In this document: in pieces, positions 1,548 to 47,162 of the stretch
Position numbering within the stretch: position 1 is the first letter of the stretch
How the letters are laid out: the number at the start of each line of letters is the position of its first letter
Source of the DNA: an uncultured Actinomycetota bacterium
Lineage (GTDB): Bacteria; Actinomycetota; Actinomycetes; Actinomycetales; CAWJMD01
NCBI GenBank assembly: GCA_963843835.1
Contig: CAWJMD010000008.1
Location: 388,043 to 452,042, forward strand
Reading direction: 5' to 3'
Length of the DNA: 64,000 nucleotides
The notes under the pieces: generated by a model
Told to the model about the DNA's origin: nothing
The model's database searches: none
The model's input: the letters and a program-made list of their open reading frames with translations, nothing else
Position numbers and translations under genes: made by a program

Positions 1548-2117
1548 CTACGCGCCGCCCGTCCTCGACCCGGCCTCGGCCGGCGCGGACGTCGCGAGGT
1601 CGAGCAGGGTCTCGCCCTCGAACGTGCCGAGGTCCTCGCGGTACAGCTCGATGCCGGACGCCGTTGGGGTCGCGGAAGTACATGCTCTCCTCGATCGCCG
1701 GCGTCGGGACCCGAGTACGCCATGCCCTGCTCGTCCAGGCGTGCGCGCAGCATGTCGTACTGCTCGCGCGGCACGCGAGATCGCGAGGTGCTGGATGCTG
1801 CCGACCGTCTCGGTGAACTCGGGATGGTCGTGCCCGGGAAAGTCGAAGAACCCCAACAGGTTGCCGTTGCCGAGGTCGAAGAAGAAGTGGCTGGAGCCGG
1901 CATAGTCGCGGTTCTCGACCAGCTCGACGAGGGGGAAGCCGAGCACCTCGGTGTAGAAGCGGATCGTCTCCTCGACGTCCTTGGCGATGAACGCGGCGTG
2001 GTGGATCCCGGCGGCGGTGGTGGTCGGGCGGTCCTCGCGTGGCCGCAGGTACCGCTCACGGATCTCGTCACGGCGGGTCCTGACGGCGTCCAGGTCGGCT
2101 CCAGTGGGCTGGGGCAT
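1548..2117 (-). pseudogene. VOC (glyoxalase/bleomycin-resistance/dioxygenase) family gene with three compensating frame shifts
   Basis: The 189-aa ORF has a VOC N-terminus (GIHHAAFIAKDVEETIRFYTEVLGFPLV, HFFFDLGNG) and C-terminus (GIELYREDLGTFEGE). The ~40 residues between them are Arg/Ala-rich nonsense. The expected motifs VPREQYDMLRARLDEQGMAYSGP and MYFRDPNG lie in the other two minus frames (ORFs 1478..2323 and 1282..1683). Shifts are near 1775, 1698 and 1655. Confidence 0.65.
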
Positions 2118-2118
2118 G

Positions 2119-3697
2119 TCAGGTGCTCCTCGCGGGGCTCGGCGGACGGCCGGCGCGGCCGGGGTCCCAGTCTGGCAGGGGCCCGTCGCGCCGCGACCTC
2201 AGGCGACGTGCGCCGGCGGCGGCCACGACGACGAGAGCAGCCACCGCCCAGCCCTGCCGGGCGGTGGTCAGGTCGTCGTGCAGCACGTACGCCCACCCCG
2301 CGGCGACGGGCACGGCGAGCCACTCAGGACGGCGTGCGAGGACCAGCAGCCCGACGAGGGGCAGCGAGTACCAGGGGTAGGCCGGGGTGGCCACGAGCAG
2401 TGCGGTCCCGAGCAGCCAGGTGGCGGTGTCCCACGGCCGCCGGGCGTCTGCCGTGCGCAGCGCGAGCGCCACAGCGACGGCTGCGACGACGAGCGCGATC
2501 GGCCACCGCGCAGCCAGCGGCACCGGCAGCAGCGCGATCACCCCGAACCGCGACCGGCCGTCGTCGAAGCCTTCCTCCACGACGTACGACGGCAGGTAGC
2601 CGAGCACAAGGGACCCGGCGACCAGCACGTGGGGCAGGTACGTGGCCGCCGCCGCCCCGACCGTGCCCAGCGGCACGAACAGCTGGCGCCGCGCGCCACC
2701 CGGAGCAGCGCGTCGCAGCACCGCGAGCGCCGGCAGCAGCAGCAGCGGCACCACCTTCGTCGCGACGGCCAGCCCGAGCAGGACGCCACCCACCACGCGG
2801 CCGCGCACCCGCTGGTCGAGCGCGAGCACGGCGCAGGCGCCGACGACCAGCGCGGTGGTCAGCACGTCGACGTGGGCGTTGTTGCCCGCCTCCACCGCGA
2901 CGACCGGCGACCAGCCCCACAGGGCGGCCCACCGCAGGTCCCGTCCGGTCCGCAGCAGCACACGACCGAGCAGGCCGGTCACTGCCACCGCGAGCGCCGC
3001 GGCTCCCAGCTGCAGCCCTGCCGTTCCGGCGCTCCACGGCGTCACCAGAGCGACCGCCGCGAACCAGGCCTGCGCGACCGGCGGGTAGATCGTGGGCACC
3101 TGCGGGCGGTTGACCGCGATCCGGTCGTCGTTGCGCGTCACCTGGCGCAGGGCCTTCGGGTCGGTGGGCAGGGGCCGGACGGTCCCGAGACCGCTGCTCT
3201 CGTCGGGACCCAGCCCGGGGAAGAGCAGCCGGGTCGCGGAGGGCGGCCAGCCGGTCGTCCGCCGGGGCGTAGCGGTACGGGGAGGTGCCGGAGAGCTGGA
3301 CCCTCCCGTCCCACACGTACCGGTAGGCGTCGGTGGACGTGAGGGGCGGCTGGGTGAGCCCGGGCACCTGGCAGGCGGCGGCGCCGAGCACCAGCACGGC
3401 CACGGCCAGCCCGCGGTGGCCGGCCGAGGGCCGCCTGCCCGACAGGCCCAGCGCCGCGGCGGCGGCGAACACCGCCCACGCGACGAGCCACCCGTAGGCC
3501 CACCCGCGAGGGTCGTCGGCCGCACTCCCCAGACGTGAGAGTCCGACCGACACCGTGACGCAGACCAGTCCGGCCGCGCCCCACCGCACGAGGGCACCCG
3601 TGTCTCGGCGGGTCGGGTCGCGGTCCGGCACGGCACCACCCTGCCTGCTCGCGGCAGCGGCGACGAGCGGGGGAGGCTCCGGACGGCGAGGCGTCAC
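2119..3697 (-). pseudogene. GT87/DUF2029-type polytopic membrane glycosyl(mannosyl)transferase, one apparent frameshift near 3229
   Basis: The N-terminal half is in ORF 2324..3871 (TDAYRYVWDGRVQLSGTSPYRYAPADDRLAALRDP). The C-terminal half is in ORF 2119..3639 (LLFPGLGP...NRPQVPTIYPPVAQAWF plus many TM segments). The join is cgc gac ccg [g] ctg ctc ttc. GTG 3697 is the proposed start. Confidence 0.65.
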
Positions 3698-3750
3698 GGT
3701 TTCGTCACCGCGGGCCCGGCCGGGAACCGCCTCGGTCTGCCTACGGTCGG

Positions 3751-5482: not shown

Positions 5483-6716
5483 CCGCGCCGCGAGCAGCAC
5501 ACGCTGCGCGGCCCGCCACTCCTCGACGACGCTGAAGTCGTGGCGGACCAGCAGGTCCGTGAGGGCGCGGGCGCCCAGCCGCGCCCACGGGATCGGGGTG
5601 CTGGTCCGGCCGTCCTCGGCGCGCAGGACGACCCGGTCCCTGCTGTCGGCGTCGTCGTCGGGGTCGGCCTCGACGAGCAGCAGGCCACCGGGCCGCAGCA
5701 GGTCACGGCAGCGGTCCAGGATCGCATGGGGATCGCCGCCGATGCCGATGTTCCCGTCGGCGAGAAGTACCGTTCCCCAACGGCCTTCACCGGGCAGCCG
5801 GTCCTGGACGCGGCGCCTCAGCACGCAGGCACCGCGACGCGTCGTCAGCTCGACCGCGACCGACGACACGTCCACGCCGAGGGCGGCCAGGCCTCGTTCC
5901 GATGCCGCGGACACCAGACGCCCTGGGCCGCAACCGATGTCGATGACCGGTGTTTCGCAGCGACTGATCATCAGGTCGTCCACGTCGTCGGTGGGACCGG
6001 CCCACCGTGCCGCGTCGAGGGGCGTGTGGCGGCCCTGGTCGTCGACGAGCACCTGCTGTCCGGCGAGTGCCTCGTCGAACAGCACGAGCGGGTGCACGCG
6101 GCGAGCCGTCGTCTGCACCAGCCGTCGGTGGGTCGCCGCGAACCGGGTGCCGGGGTTGGCCCGCGCGACCTCGTCGGCGTCCTCCGGGGTGTCGACGTCG
6201 AGCAGCTCGGGCAGCAGCCGTACCCGCAGTCCGAGCCGCCGCAGTCGGTCGAGCTGGTCGGCTCCCGTGTGCGCGGTCGACATCGGCACGCCAACCATGG
6301 CGTCGGCCACCGGCCGGCGGAAGCCGATCGCCCAGTACCCCCCGTCGGCGCTGAGACCGAGCACCGCGTCGGCGCCCTCCCAGTCGACGTCCAGCAACGC
6401 CGGGGTGAGCTGGGGGGTGTCCATGCCGACGAGCAGCATCGGGCCGTGGCCCTCGACCGCGGCCGCGTCCTCGAACGCGGCCGCGAGCCGCTCGTCGAGC
6501 CCGTCCCCGCGCTGGGTCAGCACCTCGAAGCCCGCCGGCACCCAAGGGCCCGCGGACCCGTCCAGCACCAGGACCCGGCGGACGACGGGGAGCGATGCGA
6601 CGACGTCGAGGGTGTCGCCCAGGGCGGCAGCCGCGAGCTCACCGGCCTGGTCCGGGGTGAACCGTGCTCTGCAGCCGCGTCTTGACACGTCCGGGCAGCG
6701 GCTCCTTGGCGATCAC
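5465..6716 (-). pseudogene. DUF2064 (TIGR04282-like) domain fused to class I SAM-dependent methyltransferase; apparent frameshift near 6665
   Basis: ORF 5465..6688 has the DUF2064 core (LLVGMDTPQLTP, GLSADGGYWAIGF) followed by a methyltransferase (VIDIGCGPGRL, LLRPGGLLLV). The family N-terminus LLVIAKEPLPGRVKTRLQ sits in another frame, at the end of ORF 6639..7550. GTG 6716 is the tentative start. Confidence 0.6.
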
Positions 6717-6784
6717 CAGCAGCGTGCCCGTCCGTTCGGGCGGGCGACCGGCCGAGCGGTGGGCCGGCCGCCAGAGACGTCGCC

Positions 6785-7509
6785 TCACGACGCCAGCACC
6801 CGGCTCATGTCGCGCACGGCCCGGGCCGCGCCGAGCAGGGGTGCCGGTGACCTTCGACCGTCCCGAACGGGGCAGGTAGGCGACGTCGACCTCGCCGCAC
6901 GCGCCAGCCCGCGTCGGCGGCGGCGACGAGCATCTCCAGCGGGTAGCCCGACCGCCGGTCGGACAGGCCGCAGTCCGACCAGGGCATCGCGCCGGGCCGC
7001 GCGCATCGGGCCGAGGTCGTGCACCCGCACGCCCGGTGCGGCGGTGGATCCGACGGCACAGCTCGCGGTTCGCCAGCCGCAGGTGCCACGGCCACGCGCT
7101 GCGGCGTCGTCGGACGACGACGGCCCAGCACCAGGTCGGCCGTCCCTGTCGACCACGGGGTCGACGACCGCGCCCGAGGTGGCGGCGGGTCGAGTGAGCC
7201 GTCCGCGTCCATGAAGGCCACCACGTCGGCCGTCGCGGCCTCGAGACCGCGCGCGCACGCGGAGCCGAACCCCCGGACGGGAGCGACCACCACGGTGGCA
7301 CCCAGCCCGGCGGCGACGTCCGCCGAGCCGTCGACCGACCCGTTGTCCACGACGATCGCCCGATAGCCCTCGGGTATCCGTCCGAGCACCCACGGCAGGG
7401 CCTCGGCCTCGTCGAGGCACGGCAGCACCACGTCGACCGGCGCCTGCCGCTCCCCGTCCGGTCCGCCTGGCACGGGCCAGACGCTAGGCCCGGTCGGGGC
7501 ACCGGGCAC
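6785..7509 (-). pseudogene. family 2 glycosyltransferase (TIGR04283-like), about 8 frame shifts in its 3' half
   Basis: The N-terminal part is intact in ORF 6805..7824 (VDVVLPCLDEAEALP...AIVVDNGSVDGS...VAFMDADGSLDP). After that, recognisable segments hop between the three minus frames in this order: RHLG, AVVDPVV, TGTADLVLGRRRPTTPQR, SAWPWHLRLANRELCRRIHRRTG, VRVHDLGPMRAARRDALVGL, GLSDRRSGYPLEMLVAAADAGWRV, GEVDVAYLPRSGRSKVTGT, LLGAARAVRDMSRVLAS. The start (GTG 7509 or 7473) is uncertain. Confidence 0.65.
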
Positions 7510-7594
7510 CTCGAAGCGACGATGACGGTTCGTTGACGTGACCGGTCCACCGCCGGCAGAGCGGGCCGGCGGGGCCACCGGCGTCCGTAGGGTG

Positions 7595-8317
7595 ATGAGC
7601 GTGAGCGCCCGCGTGCTGATCGTCGAGGACGACCGCACGGTGTCCGACGTCGTGCAGGCGTACCTCAGCCACGCCGGCCTCGAACCGCGGGTGGTCGACG
7701 ACGGGATGGACGGTCTCGACGCCTGGCGCACGTGGAAGCCCGACCTCGTGGTCCTCGACCTCATGCTCCCGACCCTGGACGGGCTGGAGGTGCTGCGCCG
7801 CGTCCGGGCGGACGGTGACCGCACGCCCGTCGTGGTGCTGTCAGCGCGCGGCGACAGCGAGGACCGTGTGATCGGGCTCGAGGTCGGCGCGGACGACTAC
7901 CTGGCCAAGCCCTTCAGCCCGCGTGAGCTGCTGCTGCGCGTGCAAGGGCTGCTGCGCCGCGACGAGCGGCTGCGGCGCGCCGACCTGCTGCCCCGCCAGC
8001 TCGCGCGGGGCCCGCTCGCGATCGACACGGTCGCGCGGGCCGTGACGCTGCGCGGCGAGCCGCTGTCGCTGACGCAGCGCGAGTTCGACCTGCTCGTGTT
8101 CCTGGTGGACCACCCGGGTGAGGCCTTCGGCAAGCGCGACCTGCTGCGCCGTGTGTGGGGATGGGACTTCGGGGACACCTCGACCGTCGCCGTGCACGTG
8201 CGGCGGGTCAGGGAGAAGGTGGAACGGGACGCCTCGGACCCGCGCCTCGTGGTGACGGTCCGCGGCACGGGGTACAGGTTCGCCACCGACGCCGAGCTCG
8301 AGGGAGGGAGCACATGA
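7595..8317 (+). CDS. OmpR/PhoB-family response regulator
   Basis: Receiver domain (RVLIVEDD, DLVVLDLMLP, KPF) plus winged-helix DNA-binding domain (LTQREFDLLVFL, TVRGTGYRF). ATG 7595 preferred over the ORF start at 7538. Confidence 0.9.
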   Translation: MSVSARVLIVEDDRTVSDVVQAYLSHAGLEPRVVDDGMDGLDAWRTWKPDLVVLDLMLPTLDGLEVLRRVRADGDRTPVVVLSARGDSEDRVIGLEVGADDYLAKPFSPRELLLRVQGLLRRDERLRRADLLPRQLARGPLAIDTVARAVTLRGEPLSLTQREFDLLVFLVDHPGEAFGKRDLLRRVWGWDFGDTSTVAVHVRRVREKVERDASDPRLVVTVRGTGYRFATDAELEGGST

Positions 8318-20198: not shown

Positions 20199-23000
20199 TC
20201 AGGCATCCCCGCCGGCGGTGCCGGAGGAGCCCGCGGTGATGTCGTTCAGCTTGTACAGCTCGTAGGCCATCGACGGGGCCAGCCGGTCGACCTGGCCGCG
20301 CAGTGCGAGCATGCGCAGCGCCTGGTAGGCCACCGACGGGCCGTCGATGTGGAAGTAGCGGCGCACGGCCGCGCGGGTGTCGGACAGCCCGAACCCGTCG
20401 GCGCCCAGGGACCGGAACTCGTTCGGCACGAACTGGCGCACCTGGTCCGGTACGGCCCGCATGTAGTCGCTGACCGCCACCACCGGGCCCTCGCGACCCT
20501 CGAGCTGGCGGGCCAGGAACGGCACCGGCGTCTCCTCGCCGGGCCGGTCGAACGCCCACGCGTCGCAGGACATGCCGTCGCGGCGCAGCTCGCTCCACGA
20601 CGTCACGCTCCACACGTCCGCCGCCACGCCGAAGTCCTTGGCGAGCAGCTCCTGCGCCTCGAGCGCCCACGCCACCCCGACGCCCGACGCCATCAGCTGA
20701 GCACGTCGCCCGACCGCGTTGTGCTCGCCGTTGGCGGCGACCTCGTCGTCCGCGGCGCGCAGCAGGTAGGCGCCACGCAGCAGCCCCTCGACGTCGAGCC
20801 CCTCGGGCTCGGCCGGCTGCACGGCCGGCTCGTTGTAGACCGTGAGGTAGTACATGACGTCGCGGTCCCGCTGTCCGTGCTGACCGTCGGCGAGGGGGTC
20901 GGGCCCCTCACCGAACATGCGCTGCAGCCCGTCGCGGACGATGTGACCCAGCTCGTACCCGAAGGCGGGGTCGTACGAGACGACCGCCGGGTTCGTGGAC
21001 GCGAGCAGCGGCGAGTGGCCGTCCGCGTGCTGCAGACCCTCACCGGTCAGGGTCGTGCGGCCGGCCGTGGCGCCGATCATGAACCCGCGGGTCATCTGGT
21101 CGCCGGCCGCCCAGATGCCGTCGCCGGTGCGCTGGAACCCGAACATCGAGTAGAAGACGTAGACCGGGATCATCGGCTCGCCGTGCGTGGCGTACGACGT
21201 GCCCGCCGCGGTCATCGCCGCGATCGCGCCCGCCTCGTTGATGCCGACGTGCAGGATCTGGCCCTGGGCCGACTCCTTGTACGCGAGCATCAGCTCGCGG
21301 TCCACGGACGTGTAGTTCTGGCCGTGCGGGTTGTAGATCTTGATCGTCGGGAAGAACGAGTCCATCCCGAACGTGCGCGCCTCGTCAGGGATGATCGGCA
21401 CGACGCGCGGCCCGAACTCCTTGTCGCGCATCAGGTCCTTGAGCAGCCGGACGAACGCCATCGTGGTGGCGATCTGCTGCTTGCCCGAGCCCTTCTTCGA
21501 GCCGGCGTAGGCCTCGTCACCCGGCAGCTTCACGGCCGTGGTCGGTACGCGGCGCTGCGGCAGGTGCCCCCCGAGCGCGCGGCGGCGCTCCTGCAGGTAC
21601 TGGATCTCGGGGCTGTCCGGGCCGGGGGTGTAGTACGGCGGCAGGTACGGGTCGGCCTCGAGCTGCTCGTCGGTGACCGGGATGCGCAGGCCGTCGCGGA
21701 ACGTCTTGAGGTCGTCCAGCGTCAGCTTCTTCATCTGGTGGGTCGCGTTGCGCCCGGCGAAGTTGGCACCCAGGCCGTAGCCCTTGATGGTCTTGGCGAG
21801 GATGACCGTCGGCTGCCCGGTGTGCTCCGTCGCGGCCGCGTAGGCGGCGAACACCTTGCGGTAGTCGTGCCCGCCGCGCTTGAGGGACCAGATCTGGTCG
21901 TCCGTCATGTCCTGGACCATCGAGCGCGTCCGAGGGTCGCGCCCGAAGAAGTGCTCGCGGATGAACGCGCCGTTCTCGGCGCGGTAGGTCTGGTAGTCGC
22001 CGTCCGGGGTCGAGTTCATCAGGTGGACGAGCGCCCCGTGCGAGTCCTTGGCCAGCAACGTGTCCCACTCGCGGCCCCACACGACCTTGATGACGTTCCA
22101 GCCGGCGCCACGGAAGTAGGACTCGAGCTCCTGGATGATCTTGCCGTTGCCGCGCACCGGGCCGTCGAGGCGCTGGAGGTTGCAGTTGATGACGAACGTC
22201 AGGTTGTCGAGCTCCTCGTTCGCCGCGACCTGGAGGAGGCCACGGCTCTCCGGCTCGTCCATCTCGCCGTCGCCGAGGAACGCCCACACCCGCTGGCCGG
22301 ACGTGTCCTTGATCCCGCGGTTCTGCAGGTACTTGTTGAACTGCGCCTGGTAGATGGCGTTCATCGGGCCGAGGCCCATCGACACGGTGGGGAACTGCCA
22401 GAAGTCGGGGGCCAGCCGAGGGTGCGGGTAGGACGGCAGGCCGCCGCCCGGGTGCGACAGCTCCTGCCGGAACCCGTCGAGCTGCTGCTCGGACAGCCGC
22501 CCCTCGAGGTAGGCCCGCGCGTACACGCCGGGGGATGCGTGCCCCTGGATGTAGACCTGGTCGCCGCCGCCCGGGTCGTCCGGACCGCGGAAGAAGTGGT
22601 TGAAGCCCACTTCGTAGAGCGTGGACGACGAGGCGTACGAGGAGATGTGGCCACCGACGGAGATCCCGGGCCGCTGTGCCCGGTGCACGACCATCGCCGA
22701 GTTCCAGCGCAGCAGCGCACGGTAGCGACGCTCCACGTCCTCGTCACCGGGGAACCAGGGCTCGCGCTCGGGCGGGATCGTGTTGACGTAGTCGGTGGCC
22801 GTGAGTGAGGGGACGCCGACACCCAGCTGGCGCGACCGCTGCAGCAGCTCGAGCATCAGGTACCGGGCGCGGCGGCGCCCGGCGGTCTCGGCGACACCGT
22901 CGAGCGACTCGATCCACTCCGAGGTCTCTTCCGGGTCGATGTCCGGCATGTTCGTCGGCAGCCCGTTGAGGATGGGTCCGGCTTCGTCGCGTCCAGCCAC
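20199..23000 (-). CDS. aceE: pyruvate dehydrogenase E1 component (homodimeric type)
   Basis: Intact 933-aa ORF. N-terminus [16 protein letters not shown] and the ThDP-binding region [10 protein letters not shown] are typical of AceE. Confidence 0.95.
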
Positions 23001-25595: not shown

Positions 25596-25668
25596 GGGCC
25601 TGTAGCTCAGTTGGTAGAGCACCGCGTTTACACCGCGGGCGTCGTCGGTTCGAGCCCGGCCGGGCCCA
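25596..25668 (+). tRNA. tRNA-Val (anticodon TAC)
   Basis: Folded by hand as a cloverleaf: acceptor GGGCCTG/CGGGCCC, D arm GCTC-AGTTGGTA-GAGC, anticodon stem CCGCG/CGCGG with loop TTTACAC, T arm GTCGG-TTCGAGC-CCGGC. CCA is not encoded. Confidence 0.9.
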
Positions 25669-25699
25669 CTCACCCCCTGCGCGTCGATAGGGTCGTCCG

Positions 25700-26900: not shown

Positions 26901-27644
26901 GTGACCACCGCGAACCCGCTCGACCAGGTCCGTCTGCTCGACGTGCAGGCGCTCGACACGCGCCTGCGCCAGCTCTCGCACAAGGGCACGTCCCTGCCTG
27001 AGCACGCGCGCCTCACCGCGCTGGAGGCCGAGGTGGCCGCCCTGCGGGACCGGGTCGTGGTGGCCCGGACGACTGTCAGCGACATCCAGCGCGAGCTGCG
27101 AAAGTCCGAGACCGACGTCGAGCAGGTGCGTTCGCGGGCCCAGCGCGACCAGTCCCGCCTCGACGCCGGCCAGGGCTCGGCGAAGGACCTGCAGGCGATC
27201 CAGCACGAGCTGGGTTCGCTGGCACGACGCCAGGCCGAGCTGGAGGACGTCGAGCTCGAGGTGATGGAACGGCTGGAGACGGCCCAGAACGAGGCGGAGG
27301 CGCTCGCCGAGCAGCTCGAGCGGCGCCAGGCCGAGGTCGCCGAGGTGACGGCCTCCCGCGACGCCACCCTGGCGGAGATCGGCGACGAGGCGGCCAAGGT
27401 CACGGCCGAACGTGACGGCGTCGCCGCAGGACTCGACCCTGCGCTGGTGGCCCTCTACGAGAAGATCCGCGCCGGTTCGGGCGGCGTCGCCGCCGCCGCG
27501 CTCAAGGCGAAGCGCTGCGAGGGCTGCCGGATGGAGCTCACGGCCAGCGACCTCGGGCGCATCCGGTCCGCCCCCGACGACGAGGTGCTGCGGTGTGACG
27601 AGTGCCGCTGCATCCTCGTGCGCACGTCGGAGTCGGGGCTGTGA
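26901..27644 (+). CDS. zinc-ribbon/coiled-coil protein (DUF164-type, C4 zinc ribbon)
   Basis: Long coiled-coil, then CEGCRMEL...LRCDECRCIL. It follows Nif3, as in many bacteria. Confidence 0.8.
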   Translation: MTTANPLDQVRLLDVQALDTRLRQLSHKGTSLPEHARLTALEAEVAALRDRVVVARTTVSDIQRELRKSETDVEQVRSRAQRDQSRLDAGQGSAKDLQAIQHELGSLARRQAELEDVELEVMERLETAQNEAEALAEQLERRQAEVAEVTASRDATLAEIGDEAAKVTAERDGVAAGLDPALVALYEKIRAGSGGVAAAALKAKRCEGCRMELTASDLGRIRSAPDDEVLRCDECRCILVRTSESGL

Positions 27645-32411: not shown

Positions 32412-32817
32412 GCGGACGAGCCAACCGGGCGGCCGCGTCGAGATCCTGGAGACAGGGGCTCGCCGAGGAACGTCCGGGCTCCGCAGGGCAGGGTGGTGGG
32501 TAACACCCACCCGGGGTGACCCGCGGGACAGTGCCACAGAGAACAGACCGCCACGGCGGGGCCGTCGAGAGGCGGCGCCGGCGCGGCAAGGGTGAAACGG
32601 TGGTGTAAGAGACCACCAGCACCTCCGGTGACGGAGGTGGCTCGGTAAACCCCACCCGGAGCAAGGTCAGACAGGAAGCGTCCGAGGGCTGCCCGCCCGA
32701 GCTTCCGGGTAGACCGCTGGAGGCGTGCGGCAACGTACGTCCTAGATGGATGGTCGCCACCCGCCACCGGGTGACCGGTGCGGGGACAGAACCCGGCGTA
32801 CAGGTTGGCTCGTCCGC
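32412..32817 (+). ncRNA. rnpB: RNase P RNA, bacterial type A
   Basis: P1 pairing GCGGACGAGCCAACC / GGTTGGCTCGTCCGC. Conserved blocks GAGGAACGTCCGGGCTCC, ACAGTGCCACAGAGAAC, GGTGAAACGG, GGTAAACCCCACC and ACAGAACCCGGCGTACAG. Confidence 0.9.
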
Positions 32818-32991: not shown

Positions 32992-33780
32992 ATGCGACAG
33001 CGAGTGGTGCTGGCCCCGCGCAATGCGGGTGAGGCGGTGGCAGTGGCGGTCTCCGCCGTGCTGATCGCCGGCAGCGTCGTCGCCGTCATCCAGCGCGACA
33101 CCCCGCAGCCCCAGCCCGTGCCCGCGTCGGTCGTCGCCACCCGTGACGTCCGCACCGTCTCCACGCCCGGGCAGATGGATCGGGTCGAGATCGGCGTGGA
33201 CGGATCCCGCCTGCCTCGCGTCCCCGTCTTCGTCGAGGAGGCCCCCAAGGTCCTCGCGAACCCCATCACCCGGCAGGTCGGCCCGCGCACGCAGCAGCGG
33301 TCCACGAACCCCTCGGCGAGCGCGCCCCTGCTGGAGGGCCTCGGGCCGTCCCAGCCGGTACCGACCCCGAGCGGCGTGAGCATCGTGCAGGACTTCCCGG
33401 TGCCGCTCCCGCCCGCGTCGACCGCGACCCCCTCGGAAACGCCCTCGAGCAGCCCGACGACGACCACGCCGACGACCGCGCCGACGTCGCCCGCGTCGAC
33501 CACATCGGCCTCCCCCGCGGCGACCACGCCGCCACCGGCCCCGTCTCCCAGCGGGACTCCTGCGTCCTCGCCGACGACCAACGCCTCGCCGGCGCCGGAG
33601 GGGACTCCGGCGACGGGTTCGTCCTCGGTGCTGCAGACCCCGCCGGCGACGGCGGTGCCGCCGCCGAGCGCGTCGCCCACGCCGGCGCCGCCGCCGGGAA
33701 CGGCTCCGACTCCCCAGGGCGGGGCGCCGTCCGGTGGAGGGATGGGCGAGCCGACGCCCCAGTCGTCGTCCGGCAACTGA
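32992..33780 (+). CDS. membrane-anchored Pro/Thr/Ser-rich protein
   Basis: ATG 32992. One N-terminal TM segment (AVAVAVSAVLIAGSVVAVI) and a long low-complexity PTS-rich C-terminus. Confidence 0.6.
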   Translation: MRQRVVLAPRNAGEAVAVAVSAVLIAGSVVAVIQRDTPQPQPVPASVVATRDVRTVSTPGQMDRVEIGVDGSRLPRVPVFVEEAPKVLANPITRQVGPRTQQRSTNPSASAPLLEGLGPSQPVPTPSGVSIVQDFPVPLPPASTATPSETPSSSPTTTTPTTAPTSPASTTSASPAATTPPPAPSPSGTPASSPTTNASPAPEGTPATGSSSVLQTPPATAVPPPSASPTPAPPPGTAPTPQGGAPSGGGMGEPTPQSSSGN

Positions 33781-37825: not shown

Positions 37826-38644
37826 GTGAGCAGTCAGGACGATCGGGTCGAGGCCTTCCGGCGGTTGCACTCCTCCGGCTGCTTCGTCATGCCGAACCCG
37901 TGGGACGTCGGGAGCGCGCGTGCCTTGGAGCAGCTCGGCTTCTCGGCGCTCGCCACCACGAGTGCCGGCTTCGCCTGGACGCTGGGTCGTCCAGACCAGC
38001 ACGTCACGCTCGAGGAGATGCTCGAGCACCTCCGTGCCGTCGTCGACGCGGTGGGCTTGCCGGTCAACGCAGACTTCGAAGGCGGCTTCGCGGTCGATCC
38101 GCAGCAGGTTCACGCGAACGTGGAGCTCGCCGCGCACACGGGGGTCGCCGGGCTGTCGATCGAGGACTCGACAGGGGACGAGGCGCATCCGCTCCACGAC
38201 CTTGACCAGGCGGTCGAGCGGATTCGGGCCGCACGCGACGCGATCGATGGCAGCGGTACGGGCGTCGTCCTGACCGGTCGGTCCGAGGGGTTCGTCGTCG
38301 GACGACCCGACATCGACGAGACGATCCGCAGGCTGCGCGCCTACGCGGAGGCCGGCGCCGACTGCCTGTACGCGCCGCGGATCGGAACCGTCGAGCAGGT
38401 CGCGGCGATCGTCGACGCCGTGTCACCCAAGCCGGTGAACCTGCTGATCAACGCGCCGTTCATCACGGTCGCGCAGGCGGCCGCACTCGGAGTACGGCGG
38501 ATCAGCGTGGGCGGAACGCTCGCGCGCACCGCGTGGGCCGGCTTCCTCCAGGCGGCGCAGGAGATCGCCGGCGCCGGGACGTTCTCCCGGTTCGAGAACC
38601 TGCCGGACGTCGACGGACTCCTCAGCCCGGACGCGGAGGCATAG
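37826..38644 (+). CDS. isocitrate lyase / PEP mutase family protein
   Basis: PNPWDVGSARALE...NADFEGGF...GLSIEDS. Confidence 0.8.
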   Translation: MSSQDDRVEAFRRLHSSGCFVMPNPWDVGSARALEQLGFSALATTSAGFAWTLGRPDQHVTLEEMLEHLRAVVDAVGLPVNADFEGGFAVDPQQVHANVELAAHTGVAGLSIEDSTGDEAHPLHDLDQAVERIRAARDAIDGSGTGVVLTGRSEGFVVGRPDIDETIRRLRAYAEAGADCLYAPRIGTVEQVAAIVDAVSPKPVNLLINAPFITVAQAAALGVRRISVGGTLARTAWAGFLQAAQEIAGAGTFSRFENLPDVDGLLSPDAEA

Positions 38645-38739
38645 GAGGGGGCGTTCGAGCGACCGGGAGGGCCGGTCCGAGGTGCGATCCCCGGGAACCC
38701 TGCCCGGGCGACCTTCTCGACCCCAGTCCTTCGTCGCCT

Positions 38740-38803
38740 CAACGAGATGCGACCAGTCGGGCCGGGACGACGCCCCTGCTGCCATACTTCTCGCATCTCG
38801 TTG
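38740..38803. repeat. 13-bp perfect inverted repeat (CAACGAGATGCGA ... TCGCATCTCGTTG), 38-nt spacer
   Basis: Read directly. It lies in the 300-nt spacer between convergent genes. Confidence 0.75.
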
Positions 38804-38868
38804 CCCCGTGTGATCAGCCGTCCTGACCAACGGGGTCGATGGCCCCGACTCAGGGCCTGCGCTCGACC

Positions 38869-38943
38869 CCGATTCTCCCGAGATCGGGGGTCGGGAGGGC
38901 ACGCGGCGGACCGATTCTCCCGAGAATGGGGCTGGGACGACGG
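38869..38943. repeat. two direct copies (period 42 nt) of CCGATTCTCCCGAGA(A)T(C)GGGG, each an imperfect palindrome
   Basis: The 15-nt identical cores are at 38869-38883 and 38911-38925. The flanks are similar (tcgggggtcggga / atggggctggga). Arms are CCGATTCTC / GAGAATgGG. Confidence 0.75.
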
Positions 38944-39165
38944 TCAGCCGCCCCCGCCGGACTTGCGGCGGAACGTCTTCTGCGGCTTCGCCGGCGCCGA
39001 GTGCGGGTGCTGGGCCGCCGGGTTGTGGGCGATGCCCTCGCCGCGGTGGCCGTACTTCTTGCGGTCGAGCGCCTCGCGGAACTTGCGGCGAGCCGCGTCC
39101 TGCGGCGTCTCGGTGCCCTCCGGGACGTCCGGCGGCGTGCTCTCGTCGTTCGTCGGCTCGCTCAT
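38944..39165 (-). CDS. DUF5302-like small basic protein (73 aa)
   Basis: ATG 39165 within ORF 38944..39546. ...AARRKFREALDRKKYGHRGEG...KTFRRKSGGGG. Confidence 0.6.
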   Translation of the reverse strand: MSEPTNDESTPPDVPEGTETPQDAARRKFREALDRKKYGHRGEGIAHNPAAQHPHSAPAKPQKTFRRKSGGGG

Positions 39166-39214
39166 GCGTCCATCCTGTCGGTGCGAGGGGCTGCTGACCA
39201 ATGCGTTTGCCGGC

Positions 39215-40090
39215 TCAGTCCTCGAACGAGTGCTCCGGGGCGGGGAACTGGCCCGACCTGACGTCCTCGGCGTAGGCGCGGGCGGCCTGCGACAACGTGC
39301 CACGCAGGTCCGCGTACTTGCGCACGAACCGGGGTGCCTTGCCCCCACGCAGGCCCGCCATGTCCTGCCAGACGAGAACCTGTGCGTCACAGGCGGACCC
39401 GGCGCCGATCCCGATCGTCGGGATGGCCAGCACCTCGGTGGTCCGGGCGGCGACGGGTGCCGGCACCATCTCCAGCACCAGCGAGAAGGCACCCGCCGCC
39501 TGCAGGTCGCAGGCGTCCTGGACGAGCTGGTCCGCCGCGTCCCCACGTCCCTGCACGCGGTACCCGCCGAGGGCGTGCTCGCTCTGCGGGGTGAACCCGA
39601 GGTGGGCCATCACCGGGATGCCGGCCTCGACCAGCGCCGCCACGGTCGGCACGACGCGGGCGCCGCCCTCGAGCTTCACCGCGTGGCAGCGTCCCTCCTT
39701 CATGAAGCGGGTCGCCGTCGCCAGGGCCTGCTGCGGCCCCTCCTGGTACGAGCCGAACGGCAGGTCGGCCACGACGAGGGCGCGGCGCACGCTGCGGGTC
39801 ACCGCCCGCACCAGCGCCAGCATCTCCTCGACCGTGACCGGCAGGGACGTGTCGTAGCCGTAGACGTTGTTGGCGGCGGAGTCGCCGACCAGCAGCACGG
39901 GGATGCCTGCCTCGTCGAAGATCTCGGCCGCGTACTGCTCGTACGCCGTGAGCATCGCCCAGCGCTCGCCCCGCTCCTTCATCTGCTGAAGGTGGTGGAT
40001 GCGGACCTTCGAGGTTCCGGACGCGGTCGGCGACGCGCCCGGTGCCGACGCCGCCGGCCCGTTGCCGTACGGCGCGCTCTGCTCACTCAT
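39215..40090 (-). CDS. panB: 3-methyl-2-oxobutanoate hydroxymethyltransferase
   Basis: [33 protein letters not shown] and VKLEGG motifs. Confidence 0.95.
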
Positions 40091-40127: not shown

Positions 40128-41907
40128 TCAGCTGTCCTGCTCGCGCCAGCGGCTGGTGACGGGGAGCCGGCGGTCGCGTCCGAACGCGATGCGGCTGATC
40201 TTCGGGCCCGGGGCGAACTGCCGCCGCTTCCACTCGGCGCGGTCGACCAGGCCGACGACGCGGTCGACCACGTCGGCGTCGAAACCGGCCTCGAGCAGCT
40301 CCGACCGGCCCTCGGCGCCGACGACGTACCGCTCGAGCACGGCGTCGAGCAGCTCGTAGGGCGGGAGCGAGTCCTGGTCGACCTGGCCCGGGGCCAGCTC
40401 GGCTGACGGGGGTTTGGTGATGGAGCTCTCCGGGATCGGCGGCTTCTCGCCGGACTTCTCGGCCCGGGCGTTGCGCCACCGCGCCAGCTCCCAGACCAGC
40501 GTCTTCGGCACGTCCTTCAGCGGTGCGAAGCCGCCGACGGAGTCGCCGTAGATCGTCGAGTACCCGACCGCCAGCTCGCTCTTGTTGCCCGTCGCCAGGA
40601 CGAGGTGGCTCTCCTGGTTCGAGATGCCCATCAGGATCGCGCCGCGCACGCGGGCCTGGAGGTTCTCCTCCGCGACCCCGGTCAGCTTCAGCTCGTCGAG
40701 GTAGGTCGCCACCACGGCGCCGATCGGCTGCACCCGGTAGTCGACGTCCAGCCCGCTCCGCCAGGTCGGCGGCGTCGTCCCTGGAGTGCTCGGACGAGTA
40801 CTTGCTCGGCATCGACACCCCGACGACGTTCGGGCCGCCGACCGCGTCGGCGGCGACCGCCGCGACCAGCGCCGAGTCGATGCCGCCGGAGAGCCCGAGG
40901 ATCACCGACGAGAAGCCGTTCTTGCGCACGTACTAGCGCAGACCGACGACGAGCGCCTGGTAGACCTCCTCGACGGGGTCCAGGCGCGGTGCGCACGGTG
41001 CGGGCATGCGGGTCGTAGGCGGCCACCGGCTCGTCGGAGACCACGGTCAGCTCGACCGACCCCGTCGCCGCGTCGGTGTCCAGGCGCGACTCCGGCAGGT
41101 CGAGGTCGACCACGATCAGCTCCTCGGCGAACTGCGCGCCGCGCGCCAGCACCTCGCCGTCCGGCGACGACGACGACCGAGTCGCCGTCGAAGACGAGGT
41201 CGTCCTGCCCGCCCACGAGGTTGAGATACGCCAGCGTGGCCTCCGCCTCGGCCGCGCGGCGGCGCACCAGCGCGAGCCGGGCGTCGTCCTTGTCCTGCTC
41301 GTAGGGGGAGCCGTTGAGCACCAGCAGCAGCTCCGCGCCGGCCTCGCGGGTCATCGCCACCGGGCCGCCGTCCTGCCAGAGGTCCTCGCAGATCCCGAGG
41401 GCGACGTCGACCCCGGCGACGCGCACCACGTGCAGCCGCTGCCCGGGCACGAAGATGCGGAACTCGTCGAAGACGCCGTAGTTGGGCAGGTGGTGCTTCG
41501 CGTAGCGCGTCGCCATCTCGCCCCGGTGCAGCACCGCGGCGCAGTTCTGCGGCATGCCCTTCGGGATGCCGGTCTCCCCGTCCTCGCTCACGCCGTCGCC
41601 GTCGAGGTCCGCGTCGGTCCCCTCCGCGCGGTCGAGGTAGCCGACCACGACGGGGGTCCCGCCGAAGCCCGTCCGCCGCCAGGTCGCGCGCCAGCTCGGC
41701 GATCGCGGCCCGTGAGGCGTCGACGAAGGAACGGCGCAGGGCGAGGTCCTCGACCGGGTAGCCGGTCAGCACCATCTCGGGGAAGGCGACCAGGTGCGCA
41801 CCGGCCTCGACGGCCTTGGCCGTCCAGGTCCTGACCAGTGCTGCGTTGGCCGCCAGGTCACCCACCGTGGGGTCGACCTGGGCCAGGGCGAGTCGCAGCT
41901 GCGGCAT
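40128..41907 (-). pseudogene. nadE: glutamine-dependent NAD+ synthetase, 4 frame shifts plus in-frame TAG
   Basis: Recognisable segments are spread over track ORFs 41116..41907 (CN-hydrolase N-terminus), 40902..41648, 40688..41152, 40087..40929 (SGGIDS PP-loop) and 40128..40733. Shifts are near 41669, 41163, 41008 and 40753. TAG at 40933-40935 interrupts EEVYQALVVGLR*YVRKNGF. Confidence 0.75.
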
Positions 41908-41983: not shown

Positions 41984-43330
41984 ATGGACCGCCAGGAGGA
42001 GTTCGTGCTCCGCTCGATCGAGGAGCGCGACATCCGGTTCGTCAGGCTCTGGTTCACGGACGTGCTCGGCTTCCTCAAGTCCGTGGCGGTGGCGCCCGCC
42101 GAGCTGGAGGGCGCCTTCAGCGAGGGCATCGGCTTCGACGGCAGCGCGATCGAGGGTCTCGCCCGCGTGTCGGAGGCCGACATGCTGCTTCGTCCCGACC
42201 CGTCGACGTTCCAGGTCCTCCCGTGGCGGTCCGAGGAGAGCGGCAGCCAGGGCACCGCCCGCATGTTCTGCGACGTGCTCAACCCCGACGGCGAGCCGGC
42301 GTCGGCCGACCCACGCAACGTCCTCAAGCGCGCCCTCGCGAAGGCCGGCGAGCAGGGCTTCACCTTCTACACGCACCCCGAGATCGAGTTCTACCTGCTG
42401 CACCCCGGGTCCGAACCGGGCGCCGAGCCGGTGCCGGTCGACGACGGCGGGTTCTTCGACCACGTACCCGGCGGGCCAGCCCACGACTTCCGCCGTGCCG
42501 CGATCACCGTGCTCGAGAACATGGGCATCTCGGTGGAGTTCAGCCACCACGAGGGCGGCCCGGGCCAGAACGAGATCGACCTGCGCTACGCCGACGCCCT
42601 GGCAACCGCCGACAACATCATGACGTTCCGGACGGTGATCAAGGAGGTCGCCATGGAACAGGGCGTCTACGCCACCTTCATGCCCAAGCCGCTGTCGGGA
42701 CAGCCCGGTTCGGGCATGCACACCCACATGTCGCTGTTCGAGGGCGACCGCAACGCCTTCCACGAGGCCGGGGCCCAGTACCAGCTCAGCCGCACCGCCC
42801 GGCAGTTCATCGCCGGTCTGCTCAAGCACGGCGCCGAGATCAGCCTCATCACGAACCAGTTCGTCAACTCGTACAAGCGGCTGTGGGGCGGGGGAGAGGC
42901 GCCCTCGCACCTGTGCTGGGGACACAACAACAGGTCCGCGCTCGTGCGGGTGCCGATGTACAAGCCGGGCAAGGAGCAGTCGGTGCGCGTCGAGCACCGC
43001 GCGCTCGACGCCGCCTGCAACCCCTACCTCGCCTACGCCGTGATGCTCGCGGCGGGGCTGAAGGGCATCGAGGAGGGCTACGAGCTGCCCGAGGGCGCCG
43101 AGGACGACGTCTGGACGCTGACCGACGGGGAGCGGCGCGCGCTGGGCATCGAGCCGATGCCGGCGAGCCTGGACCACGCGATCGCCGCGATGGAGGGCTC
43201 CGAGCTGGTGGCGGAGACCCTCGGCGAGCGCGTGTTCGACTTCGTCCTGCGCAACAAGCGCCAGGAGTGGAACGACTACCGCCTCCAGGTCACCCCCTTC
43301 GAGCTACGCCGCTTCCTGCCCATCCTGTGA
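41984..43330 (+). CDS. glnA2: type I glutamine synthetase paralogue (GlnA2-like)
   Basis: 448 aa. IRFVRLWFTDVLG, FDGSAIEG, and the MPKPL..GSGMH.H.SLF pattern. Confidence 0.85.
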   Translation: MDRQEEFVLRSIEERDIRFVRLWFTDVLGFLKSVAVAPAELEGAFSEGIGFDGSAIEGLARVSEADMLLRPDPSTFQVLPWRSEESGSQGTARMFCDVLNPDGEPASADPRNVLKRALAKAGEQGFTFYTHPEIEFYLLHPGSEPGAEPVPVDDGGFFDHVPGGPAHDFRRAAITVLENMGISVEFSHHEGGPGQNEIDLRYADALATADNIMTFRTVIKEVAMEQGVYATFMPKPLSGQPGSGMHTHMSLFEGDRNAFHEAGAQYQLSRTARQFIAGLLKHGAEISLITNQFVNSYKRLWGGGEAPSHLCWGHNNRSALVRVPMYKPGKEQSVRVEHRALDAACNPYLAYAVMLAAGLKGIEEGYELPEGAEDDVWTLTDGERRALGIEPMPASLDHAIAAMEGSELVAETLGERVFDFVLRNKRQEWNDYRLQVTPFELRRFLPIL

Positions 43331-44088
43331 CCGAGACCGTGGAACCACTGTCGGCGCCCCGCGTCCTCGTCATCGAGCACCACCGCGAGTGCGGCCTCGG
43401 CCGGCTCACGCCCCTCCCGGGGTGCGAGGTGGTCCTGGTGCGGGCCGGGGAGGGCGAGGAGCTCCCCGCCGACCTCGACGGGTGGGACGGACTGCTGGTC
43501 CTGGGCGGCCCGACCGCGGCCTGGGAGGACGACGTCGCCCCGTGGCTGCCCGCCACCCGGGCACTCCTCGCGGACGCGGTCGAGCGCAGGGTGCCGACCC
43601 TGGGCGTGTGCCTCGGCGCCCAGCTGCTGGCCATGGCCACCGGCGGCACGGTGGAGCGCGGCCCCGACGGTCCCGAGCTGGGCGTGCTCGGGGTGCTGCT
43701 GGCGCCAGAGGCGGGCTCGGACGAGTTCACCGCTGCCCTGGCCGCATCGCTCGGGGCGGGCATCCCGGCGCCGCAGGGGCACCACGACGCGGTGACGGCC
43801 CTGCCGCCGGGCGCCGTCCTGCTGGCCTCGTCGCCGAGGTACCCGCACCAGATCTTCCGGGTCGGCGAGCGGGCCTGGGGCGTGCAGTACCACCCGGAGG
43901 TCCTGCCGGAGGACTTCGAGAGCTGGCTGGTCGAGGACGCGGAGCACCTCGCGGCTGCCGGCACCAGCGTCGAGCAGCAGATGGAGGTCTTCGCTGCCGC
44001 GCGCGACTCCTTGCAGCACAGCGCAGGCGCGCATGCCGAGGCGTTCGCCGGCGTCGTCCTCCGGCACGCGGCCGCGCCGGTCGCATGA
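43327..44088 (+). CDS. class I glutamine amidotransferase-like protein
   Basis: GVCLGAQLLA nucleophile elbow and YHPE near the C-terminus. GTG 43327 overlaps the glnA2 stop, and its own stop overlaps the glnE ATG. Confidence 0.75.
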   Translation: MTETVEPLSAPRVLVIEHHRECGLGRLTPLPGCEVVLVRAGEGEELPADLDGWDGLLVLGGPTAAWEDDVAPWLPATRALLADAVERRVPTLGVCLGAQLLAMATGGTVERGPDGPELGVLGVLLAPEAGSDEFTAALAASLGAGIPAPQGHHDAVTALPPGAVLLASSPRYPHQIFRVGERAWGVQYHPEVLPEDFESWLVEDAEHLAAAGTSVEQQMEVFAAARDSLQHSAGAHAEAFAGVVLRHAAAPVA

Positions 44089-47000
44089 CGCGGTCGGGGA
44101 CCGGTGGCGCCAGCAACCGGCAGGCCAGCCCCACCGGCACGCTCGCCCGTCTCGGCTTCGCCGAGCCCGACCGCGCGCTGACCCTGCTGCAGGACGAGGC
44201 GCTCGCCGGGCTCGTGGACCCGTTCGACGACGTCTTCGACGACGGCCTGATGCGAGCCCTGTCGGACACGGCCGACCCCGACCAGGCGCTGCTCGCGCTG
44301 GTGCGCGTGCTCACCGAGGCACACCGGCAGCAGGCCGGCAGCGCCCGACGCGGTGACGACGACGACGGCCTGGCCCCGGGCAGGCTGCACGCCCTCGTGC
44401 GGACGCCGGGGGAGGGACGCGACCGGCTGCTGGCCGTCCTCGGCGCCTCCGCCGCCCTCGGCGACCACCTCGTGCGCCACCCCGGCCACTGGCAGGCGCT
44501 GACCGCCCCCGAGCCCGAGCTGCCGGAGGAGCTGCGGCGCGACCTGCTCTCGGCCGTCGGGGCCGACCCCGACGCGGCGGTGCCGGTGGCGACGCTGCCC
44601 GTCCCCGACGCGCTCGGCACGCTGAGGGTCGCCTACCGGCGGCGGCTGCTCGCGCTGGCGGGGCGCGACCTCGCGTCGCCGGAGCCGGCTCTCGTCGTCG
44701 ACCGCGTCACCCTCGAGCTGGCCGACCTCGCCGCCGCCGCCCTGGAGGCCGCCCTCGCCGTGGCCCGCAGCGAGCTCGACGACCACGGGAAGGGCTGCCG
44801 GCTGGCGGTCATCGCCATGGGGAAGACGGGCGGCCGCGAGCTGAACTACGTGAGCGACGTCGACGTGGTCTACGTGGCCGAGCCCGCCGACGGCACCGAC
44901 GAGGAGGCGGCGCTCGCGACCGGCGCGCGCCTCGCCTCGTCCCTCGCGCGGGTCTGCTCCGCCAGCACGTCCGAGGGCACCCTCTGGCCCGTCGACGCCG
45001 CGCTGCGGCCTGAGGGAAAGGACGGGCCGCTGGTCCGCACCGTGGCCAGCCACCGCGCGTACTACGAGCGCTGGGCCGCCACCTGGGAGTTCCAGGCGCT
45101 GCTGAAGGCGCGACCGGTGGCGGGCGACGCCCAGGTCGGGCGGCAGTACGTCGAGGCGATCACGCCCCTGGTGTGGGAGGCGGCCGGACGCGAGAACTTC
45201 GTGCGCGACGTGCAGGCGATGCGCCGCAGGGTCGAGGCGCACGTGCCCAGCCGTGAGAGCGAGCGCCAGCTCAAGCTCGGCCCCGGCGGGCTCCGCGACG
45301 TGGAGTTCAGCGTGCAGCTCCTGCAGATGGTGCACGGGCGCGCAGAGGATCGGCTGCGCACCCCGAACACGCTCGAGGCGCTCGAGCTGCTGTCCACCTA
45401 CGGCTACGTCGGTCGCGACGACGCGGGGGCCCTCGACACCGCGTACCGGGACCTGCGCGTGCTCGAGCACCGCCTCCAGCTGGCCAGGTTGCGGCGCACC
45501 CACGTGATGCCCGAGAACGACGAGGACCGGCGGCGGCTCGCCCGTGCCGCCCGGCTGGGCGGTCTCGAGGGGCTGGACAAGATGTGGAGGTCGACGCGCG
45601 CTGTCGTCCGTCCACTGCACGAAAGGCTCTTCTACCGACCGATTCTCGCCGCAGCGGCCCGCCTCACCGCTGACGAGGCACGCCTCACTCCCGACGCGGC
45701 CAGGGCCCGCCTCCAGGCGCTCGGGTACACCGACCCGGCCGGAGCGATGCGCCACCTCGAGGCGCTGACCGAGGGGGTGAGCCGGCGGGCCGCGATCCAG
45801 CGTCAGCTGCTGCCCGTGCTGCTCGGCTGGTTCGCCGAGGGCGCCGACCCCGACGCCGGCCTGCTCGCCTTCCGGAAGGTCAGCGATGCCCTCGGTACGA
45901 CCCACTGGTACCTGAAGATGCTGCGCGACTCCGGTGCCGGTGCGGAGCGGATCGCCAGCGTGCTCTCGGGCGGCCAGTACGCCTCCTCCCTGCTGGCCCG
46001 TCTGCCCGAGGCGACCCGGTGGCTCGGTTCGGACGAGGACCTGGCGCCGCGGGCTCCGTCCGCGCTGTCGGCGGAGGTGGCCACGGCCGTGGCACGCCAC
46101 CGCGACCCGGCCGACGCCGTCGCCGCCGCGAGGTCGGTGCGGGCGCGCGAGATGCTGCGCACGGCGCTCGGTGACCTGGCCGGCGTGGTCGACCTGACCC
46201 AAGTGGGTGCGGCCCTCTCCGCAGCCACGGTCGCTGCTCTCGAGGGCGCTCTCACGGTCGCGTGCCGGACGGTCGCGCTGGAGCGGTCGGTCGACGAGCT
46301 GCCCACCCGCGTCGCGGTGATCGGGATGGGGCGGCTCGGTGGGCTGGAGCTGGGGTACGGCAGCGACGCCGACGTGGTGTTCGTCCACGATCCGCGGGAC
46401 GGGGCCGACGAGCAGGAGGCCCAGTCCGTCGCGATCGCCGTGGTCACCGAGCTGCAGAAGCTGCTGCGCACCCAGGGGTCGAGTCCGACGGTCGACATCG
46501 ACACCAGCCTGCGCCCGGAGGGCCGGGACGGGCCGCCGGTGCGGTCGCTCGACTCCTACGCGGAGTACTACCGACGCTGGTCCTCGGGGTGGGAGGCGCA
46601 GGCGCTGCTGCGCGCCGAGCCGATGGCCGGTGACGACGAGCTGGGTCAGGCCTTCCGTGAGCTGGTCGACCCGCTGAGGTACCCCCGGTCCGGCCTCGGC
46701 GCGGGGGACGTGCGAGAGCTGCGCCGCATCAAGGCGCGCGTCGAGTCCGAACGCCTTCCCCGCGGCGTGAGCCCCGGTCGCCACCTCAAGCTCGGCCCGG
46801 GCGGCCTGGCCGACGTCGAGTGGACCGTGCAGCTCCTCCAGCTGCAGCACGGGGCCGAGCACGCCGAGCTGCGGACGACGTCGACCCTCGGCGCGCTCAG
46901 GGCGGCGATGCACCTCGGGCTGGTCGCCACGGCCGACGCGGAGACGCTGGAGCACGCGTGGGCGACGGCGTCACGGCTGCGGAACGCGTTGGTGCTGTGG

Positions 47001-47162
47001 CGAGGACGAGGAACGGACGTGATGCCGACGATCCGGCGCGACCTCGACGGTGCCGCGCGGCTGCTCGGCTACGCCCCGGCGCACGTGGGCGCGCTGGAGG
47101 ACGACGTCCTGCGCGCGATGCGGCACGCCCGCTCGGTCGTGGAGCGGCTCTTCTACGGCTGA
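44085..47162 (+). CDS. glnE: bifunctional glutamine synthetase adenylyltransferase / adenylyl-removing enzyme
   Basis: About 1025 aa starting at ATG 44085. Duplicated nucleotidyltransferase modules (MGKTGGRELNYVSDVDVV and MGRLGGLELGYGSDADVV). Confidence 0.9.
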   Translation: MTRSGTGGASNRQASPTGTLARLGFAEPDRALTLLQDEALAGLVDPFDDVFDDGLMRALSDTADPDQALLALVRVLTEAHRQQAGSARRGDDDDGLAPGRLHALVRTPGEGRDRLLAVLGASAALGDHLVRHPGHWQALTAPEPELPEELRRDLLSAVGADPDAAVPVATLPVPDALGTLRVAYRRRLLALAGRDLASPEPALVVDRVTLELADLAAAALEAALAVARSELDDHGKGCRLAVIAMGKTGGRELNYVSDVDVVYVAEPADGTDEEAALATGARLASSLARVCSASTSEGTLWPVDAALRPEGKDGPLVRTVASHRAYYERWAATWEFQALLKARPVAGDAQVGRQYVEAITPLVWEAAGRENFVRDVQAMRRRVEAHVPSRESERQLKLGPGGLRDVEFSVQLLQMVHGRAEDRLRTPNTLEALELLSTYGYVGRDDAGALDTAYRDLRVLEHRLQLARLRRTHVMPENDEDRRRLARAARLGGLEGLDKMWRSTRAVVRPLHERLFYRPILAAAARLTADEARLTPDAARARLQALGYTDPAGAMRHLEALTEGVSRRAAIQRQLLPVLLGWFAEGADPDAGLLAFRKVSDALGTTHWYLKMLRDSGAGAERIASVLSGGQYASSLLARLPEATRWLGSDEDLAPRAPSALSAEVATAVARHRDPADAVAAARSVRAREMLRTALGDLAGVVDLTQVGAALSAATVAALEGALTVACRTVALERSVDELPTRVAVIGMGRLGGLELGYGSDADVVFVHDPRDGADEQEAQSVAIAVVTELQKLLRTQGSSPTVDIDTSLRPEGRDGPPVRSLDSYAEYYRRWSSGWEAQALLRAEPMAGDDELGQAFRELVDPLRYPRSGLGAGDVRELRRIKARVESERLPRGVSPGRHLKLGPGGLADVEWTVQLLQLQHGAEHAELRTTSTLGALRAAMHLGLVATADAETLEHAWATASRLRNALVLWRGRGTDVMPTIRRDLDGAARLLGYAPAHVGALEDDVLRAMRHARSVVERLFYG

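Follow-up and report, generated by a model that had tools for sequence, protein, structure and literature searches.

Four single-base insertions and an in-frame TAG in an actinobacterial nadE: probable consensus errors of a long-read metagenome assembly

Has this actinobacterium lost its NAD+ synthase, or is its nadE gene broken only in the consensus sequence of an assembly? In the 64-kb window analysed here (the whole stretch of DNA under study), nadE is spread over several reading frames and carries a stop codon. If these lesions were real, the organism, a free-living actinobacterium, would lack NAD synthetase and would have to obtain its NAD by an unrecognised route. As NadE serves as a drug target in mycobacteria, this would be relevant. 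An earlier note made on this DNA had called nadE normally essential, which is too strong as a universal statement, since nadE is absent from some bacteria, which rely on salvaged NMN or nicotinamide riboside.

The interrupted nadE gene and its neighbours

As given, the sequence contains no uninterrupted nadE ORF. None of the five overlapping ORFs on the minus strand from 41907 to 40128 (263, 248, 154, 280 and 201 aa) spans the gene, but every one of them contains a piece of NAD+ synthase, and the source assembly calls nadE as two fragments of 248 and 201 aa (P0241 and P0242), both recorded from the source contig only. When eight intact orthologues and the closest one, P0001 (591 aa), are aligned by tblastn, the entire orthologue is covered by five colinear blocks lying in frames 1, 2, 3, 1 and 2 in turn, with E-values effectively of 0 (Table 1). 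A Viterbi decoding of codon usage, trained on the window itself and thus free of homology, places its frame switches at 41670/1, 41160/1, 40982/3 and 40750/1. The block assignment and the coordinates proposed earlier are reproduced by the former approach and agree with the latter.

The alignment with orthologues that had been suggested for confirming each lesion was run at the DNA level with five orthologues and with the sister locus L081. It reveals exactly four extra bases of 1 nt each and no other indel in the gene, and a codon comparison confirms the TAG. At the TAG position, L081 has TCG (Ser) and the other orthologues have GAC, GGC or GGG, so that one C>A substitution separates the window codon from its sister. 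Deletion of the extra A of lesion 3 makes the window read YDPLPAPCAPRLDP, as in P0001, and removal of the G of lesion 4 retains the conserved Arg of the DLA-x-R motif. Altogether, deletion of the four bases shortens the gene from 1780 nt to 1776 nt and restores an ORF of 591 codons plus stop, equal in length to P0001 and encoding a protein 91% identical to it, in which the TAG is the sole remaining defect. The identity of nadE, the order of its parts and its five lesions, as first read from the sequence, are thus borne out within a few bases by tblastn, by the codon model and by the DNA alignments.

Table 1. Coordinates of nadE, of its lesions and neighbours, and of the other disrupted sites in the window
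Feature	Position	Strand	Basis
nadE, two-domain NAD+ synthase (CN-hydrolase/glutaminase + NAD synthase)	40128..41907	-	tblastn blocks, profile matches
nadE block 1, aa 1-79 of P0001	41907-41671	-	tblastn
nadE block 2, aa 80-246 of P0001	41669-41169	-	tblastn
nadE block 3, aa 249-299 of P0001	41161-41009	-	tblastn
nadE block 4, aa 300-384 of P0001	41007-40753	-	tblastn
nadE block 5, aa 385-591 of P0001	40751-40131	-	tblastn
Lesion 1, extra T, CT[T]C on the coding strand, frame +1	41665..41666	-	absent from L081 and five orthologues (alignment column 238); block boundary 41671/41669
Lesion 2, extra G, GCC[G]GAC, frame +1	41161..41162	-	alignment column 753; block boundary 41169/41161; Viterbi 41160/1
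Lesion 3, extra A, CGC[A]TGC, non-homopolymer, frame +1	41007	-	L081 alignment; block boundary 41009/41007
Lesion 4, extra G in a GGG run, CG[G]GCT, frame +1	40752..40754	-	alignment column 1173; block boundary 40753/40751
In-frame TAG within the GLR-x-YVRKNGF motif	40933..40935	-	codon comparison with orthologues
panB, intact, downstream neighbour	39215..40090	-	ORF of 291 aa; 95.5% identical to L081 orthologue, dN/dS 0.07; Pfam Pantoate_transf on L081 orthologue
glnA2-type glutamine synthetase, intact, divergent neighbour	41984..43330	+	ORF of 448 aa; 95.8% identical to L081 orthologue; Gln-synt_N and Gln-synt_C on L081 orthologue
Second patch, C-terminal half of GT2 glycosyltransferase and start of adjacent TIGR04282/DUF2064 gene	6665..7186	-	low-penalty Viterbi, frame translations
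Third site, extra G splitting a GT87 mannosyltransferase-like gene	3231..3233	-	Viterbi switch 3232/3; L082 comparison
Fourth patch, three +1 shifts in a VOC/glyoxalase-family ORF (1548-2198)	1655..1775	-	Viterbi micro-runs, three-frame translation

Against the NCBIfam model NF010588 'NAD+ synthase', whose cut-off is 479 bits, the repaired protein scores 649 bits and covers positions 4-545 of the 546 in the profile; this score is reached only once the four bases are removed. It also covers positions 1-250 of 256 of Pfam CN_hydrolase (PF00795) and 2-241 of 242 of Pfam NAD_synthase (PF02540), scores 189.6 bits against TIGR00552 (cut-off 63.65) and aligns over its full length with PDB 3N05 (749.7 bits). 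CN_hydrolase, the SGGIDS PP-loop and NAD_synthase follow one another in this order and none is missing, the PP-loop being that of the C-terminal domain. In the N-terminal one, the catalytic motifs AFPEM, AKHHLPNYGVFDE (listed as AKHH) and ICEDLW can be read, which points to a putative glutaminase with the Glu-Lys-Cys motifs of CN-hydrolases. In length, domain order and full-length match, the repaired protein resembles the class of NadE of about 590 aa (NF010588/PRK13981; PDB 3N05, 4F4H and 5KHA), from which the window gene as given differs by the four 1-nt insertions and the TAG that interrupt it; the 680-aa NadE of Mycobacterium tuberculosis (3DLA) is only distant kin (134 bits). In other genomes, 587 stretches encode a relative of the window nadE. 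By homology, the CN-hydrolase domain of the predicted enzyme would free ammonia from glutamine, and the PP-loop domain would adenylate and amidate nicotinate adenine dinucleotide (NaAD) into NAD.

The neighbours on both sides, panB and glnA2, are single ORFs, as had been noticed from the sequence, and their proteins are recorded from the source contig only. The gene order panB-nadE-glnA2-GATase-glnE-glnA1 is a conserved actinobacterial neighbourhood, also found in L081 and in other relatives, and the window as a whole has an actinobacterial gene content and a G+C content of 68-76%.

As three of the four insertions extend a short run (TT, GG or GGG), one could imagine that the gene is rescued by recoding, through programmed +1 frameshifting or transcriptional slippage combined with stop-codon read-through. 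These runs are however merely 2-3 nt long, four independent sites and a suppression of the TAG would be needed in one and the same gene, and none of the eight orthologues tested is shifted at these sites, which effectively refutes such a rescue. We know of no recoding system that works with four shifts and TAG suppression in one gene, and we regard this explanation as barely credible.

Selection on the repaired NadE

If nadE had been dead for long, its conserved residues should have been substituted; they are untouched. Among 120 orthologues, 270 alignment columns reach a conservation of 97% or more. At these, the repaired NadE has no window-specific replacement: it deviates at three of them, and all three deviations are common to the intact sister P0001. 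The dN/dS of nadE between the window and L081 is 0.12, to be compared with 0.03-0.25 for 13 intact neighbour genes. Neither these 270 columns nor the comparison with the 13 neighbours thus gives any signal of relaxed selection, be it conserved-site replacements or a raised dN/dS. The repaired nadE is under full purifying selection.

There is a mild asymmetry between the two branches. When amino-acid changes are polarised with outgroups, the window branch carries 18 derived changes and that of P0001 carries 9. All of these are conservative, and the majority are found within the lesion span, where a hand count gives 14 and 5, respectively. This excess fits either substitution errors in a poor patch of sequence or a slight relaxation of selection, and does not decide between them.

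These data bear on the possibility that nadE is a genuine but very recent pseudogene, NaAD amidation being bypassed by salvage of nicotinamide or nicotinamide riboside via NMN, or being ensured by another NAD synthetase whose gene lies outside the window. The lesions are indeed unambiguous in the sequence given, the source assembly itself calls fragments, the modest excess of derived changes lies on the window branch, and bacteria living without nadE exist. On the other hand, five disabling lesions are slow to arise neutrally, yet no conserved site has been hit and dN/dS is unremarkable. Moreover, no second nadE is found within the 64 kb, and no broken nadE turns up in the related genomes inspected, the eight orthologues being colinear with the window gene and the protein hits listed being full length. 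Further points against it come from the rest of the window, where +1 lesions also affect unrelated neighbouring genes, run from one gene into the next and come in frame-preserving triplets, and from an independent assembly that lacks one of them, at 3233 (see below). We consider a recent pseudogene improbable. That a free-living, high-G+C soil actinobacterium, related to Angustibacter/Kineosporiaceae, truly lost nadE very recently and survives by an amidation-independent route such as the salvage of NMN or nicotinamide riboside, or thanks to a non-orthologous enzyme encoded elsewhere in the genome, appears distinctly improbable.

Lesions of the same type elsewhere in the window

When the same-strand frame switches of the codon-model path are checked against stop codons, about 16 frame changes, nadE included, are found in five genes forming four patches, and 15 of them are +1 insertions; the remaining genes, about 50, look clean in this check. 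Two further candidates were rejected. A Viterbi switch at 33408 sits in a Pro/Thr/Ser-rich low-complexity protein and is an effect of composition, and an in-frame stop at 11547 marks where one gene gives way to the next, which shares its frame. The low-complexity protein in question (33002-33780, plus strand) is rich in Pro, Thr, Ser and Ala and has a hydrophobic N-terminal segment.

The most heavily affected gene is the GT2 glycosyltransferase gene, with seven frame switches between 7186 and 6838, six of them +1 and one -1. Against the NF041391 profile (213 positions), its translation matches positions 6-208 when the frames are stitched, and 6-80 in a single frame. The adjacent TIGR04282/DUF2064-methyltransferase fusion gene has one switch, an extra A at 6665 (AGC[A]CGG), which leaves the first 19 positions of the TIGR04282 profile in another frame: the match rises from 98.1 bits (positions 20-188) to 126.6 bits (positions 1-188) upon stitching. 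As both genes are hit, by eight switches in about 520 bp, this patch crosses a gene boundary.

The VOC/glyoxalase-family ORF, whose family is assigned from motifs, is affected in a more discreet way. Its translation reads HLAIS, VPREQYDMLRARLDEQGMAYSGPD, IEESMYFRDPNGV and GIELYRE in frames 1, 2, 0 and 1, successively, within about 130 nt, so that the ORF remains open while about 40 internal residues are garbled. An error of this kind would escape any ORF-based annotation. Together with 3233 and 6665-7186, the patch at 1655-1775 makes one error type recur across unrelated genes and ignore gene boundaries, as would be expected of an assembly artefact. The proposal that the nadE lesions mark a locally poor assembly region is thereby favoured as to its nature, but not as to its confinement to 40700-41700.

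Frame disruptions in 5 of about 55 window genes could also be taken as a sign of genome-wide gene decay, in the manner of Mycobacterium leprae, in an obligate symbiont or pathogen in which all the broken genes, including nadE, would be real. The likeness is tangible, since M. leprae-type pseudogenes also combine several frame shifts and a nonsense codon in a housekeeping gene flanked by intact neighbours. Nevertheless, the window nadE differs from them by its normal dN/dS and by the lack of any excess of conserved-site substitutions, and also by indels that are insertions only, with like lesions crossing gene boundaries elsewhere in the window, when natural decay yields a deletion-dominated mix. 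In coding density and operon structure, the window is like a free-living actinobacterium, and it shows neither large deletions, nor insertion sequences, nor degraded intergenic stretches. The lesions, +1 insertions with hardly an exception, are tightly clustered, leave the protein between them unchanged and are neither substitution-rich nor deletion-biased, and the genes disrupted in the sister MAGs are other ones (see below). Genome-wide decay is for these reasons highly improbable.

The spectrum of the lesions is informative in itself. Natural pseudogene decay is dominated by substitutions and, among bacteria, is reportedly biased towards deletions. A nearly pure +1 spectrum runs opposite to this deletion bias and so counts in favour of an artefact. 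More generally, natural decay is hard to invoke for lesions that ignore gene boundaries, are almost purely insertional and leave the intervening protein untouched.

Related genomes, independent assemblies and the origin of the lesions

The source contig is metagenome-derived and 1,339,117 bp long. The sister locus L081 lies on a contig of 2.07 Mb named 'contig_12652' and has an intact nadE, with 86.8% nucleotide identity in the block that contains it. Its glnE (4631-7789), by contrast, occupies three frames and has been annotated as two genes of 780 and 250 aa, while glnE of the window (44085-47162, 1025 aa) is intact. In a Microflora Danica MAG (L011), glnE is also frame-shifted, in frames -2, -3 and -2 over approximately 1-1736. 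Furthermore, two proteins of the sister MAG, on the 2.07-Mb contig of L081, are represented by C-terminal fragments only: one of 286 aa (P0402) for a carboxyltransferase-like protein of 485 aa in the window (13432-14886; 96% identity), and one of 420 aa (P0405) for an AceE-like protein of 933 aa in the window (20202-23000; 90% identity). These two sister genes are probably frame-shifted as well. That the damage hits other genes in the sister MAGs suggests a cause in the method and not in the lineage.

The long-read Microflora Danica catalogue (MFD-LR) was built from Nanopore data only (LSK114 kit, PromethION 114M flow cells), assembled with Flye --meta and polished by one round of Medaka, and its authors inspected it for 'Nanopore-associated sequencing errors' (PMC12313526). 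From the megabase scale of the contig, the naming of its relatives' contigs and the taxonomy, we infer that the window comes from a MAG of the Nanopore/Flye/Medaka type, from MFD-LR or similar. Like such Nanopore-only MAGs, it belongs to a megabase metagenome contig in which clustered single-base indels break genes. The resemblance is nevertheless incomplete: the trouble in MFD-LR was mainly found in low-GC, homopolymer-rich and low-coverage MAGs (PMC12313526), whereas the window lesions are insertions, lie partly outside homopolymers and belong to a genome of 73% G+C.

Independent assemblies provide a direct comparison at one of the lesions. A Logan contig of 3847 bp (L082, run ERR11523665) corresponds to window 1911-5758 with 99.8% identity over 3848 bp; it was reached via a protein (P0121) that is identical to an intact window protein and is recorded both from the source contig and from a Logan assembly. 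This contig does not have the extra G at 3233, and the GT87 gene is in it an intact ORF of 503 aa. Six substitutions, of which three are synonymous, separate it from the window and hint at strain heterogeneity in the sample. Because of them, L082 may stem from another strain living alongside, and 3233 could then be a genuine difference between strains.

Two other Logan contigs, found via the DUF5302 and GATase genes, are 100% identical to the window over 38483-39388 (L083) and 43097-44298 (L084), and end about 740 bp and about 1190 bp short of nadE, respectively. A homology search of independent assemblies with a 180-aa segment of the repaired NadE, looking for nadE fragments of the same strain, returns nothing above 74% identity. 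Exact look-ups in the protein collection retrieve neither the repaired NadE (with Ser at the TAG) nor the repaired DUF2064 protein, and no intact NadE of the same strain is present in that collection.

In view of these results, we estimate at about 0.85 the probability that the frame shifts and the TAG of nadE are consensus errors of a long-read metagenome assembly and not mutations of the organism, a reading that is favoured by the clean four-base repair, the lack of any decay signal, the recurrence of the lesions in other genes and the absence of the G at 3233 from L082. The locus, judged from its sequence, would then most likely be an ordinary, functional nadE. Two features go against such consensus errors, namely the TAG, which is a substitution, and the insertion of an A outside any homopolymer, both unlike the classic error in homopolymer length. 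As a speculation, the patches of insertions could result from locally low coverage, or from co-occurring strains collapsed into one consensus. The alternative put forward in the earlier note, that of a real pseudogene requiring another route for NAD amidation, is at odds with selection that is not relaxed, with like insertions in four other genes and with the sequence of L082 at 3233.

As patches of probable single-base insertion errors split housekeeping genes in this contig, calls of gene content or of a 'missing pathway' made from this MAG and its sisters need frameshift-aware annotation or read-level polishing first.

Some minor observations concern the rest of the window. The codon model makes no coding call over 1-1010, and G+C is lower at this end (68% over 1-2000). 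A tRNA-Ser(CGA) of 96 nt called by ARAGORN at 27417-27512 (minus strand) is probably a false positive, as it has no Rfam support and lies inside a coding run. A tRNA-Val(TAC) is found at 25596-25669 (plus strand), and a full-length bacterial class A RNase P RNA at 32417-32816 (plus strand; 282.9 bits).
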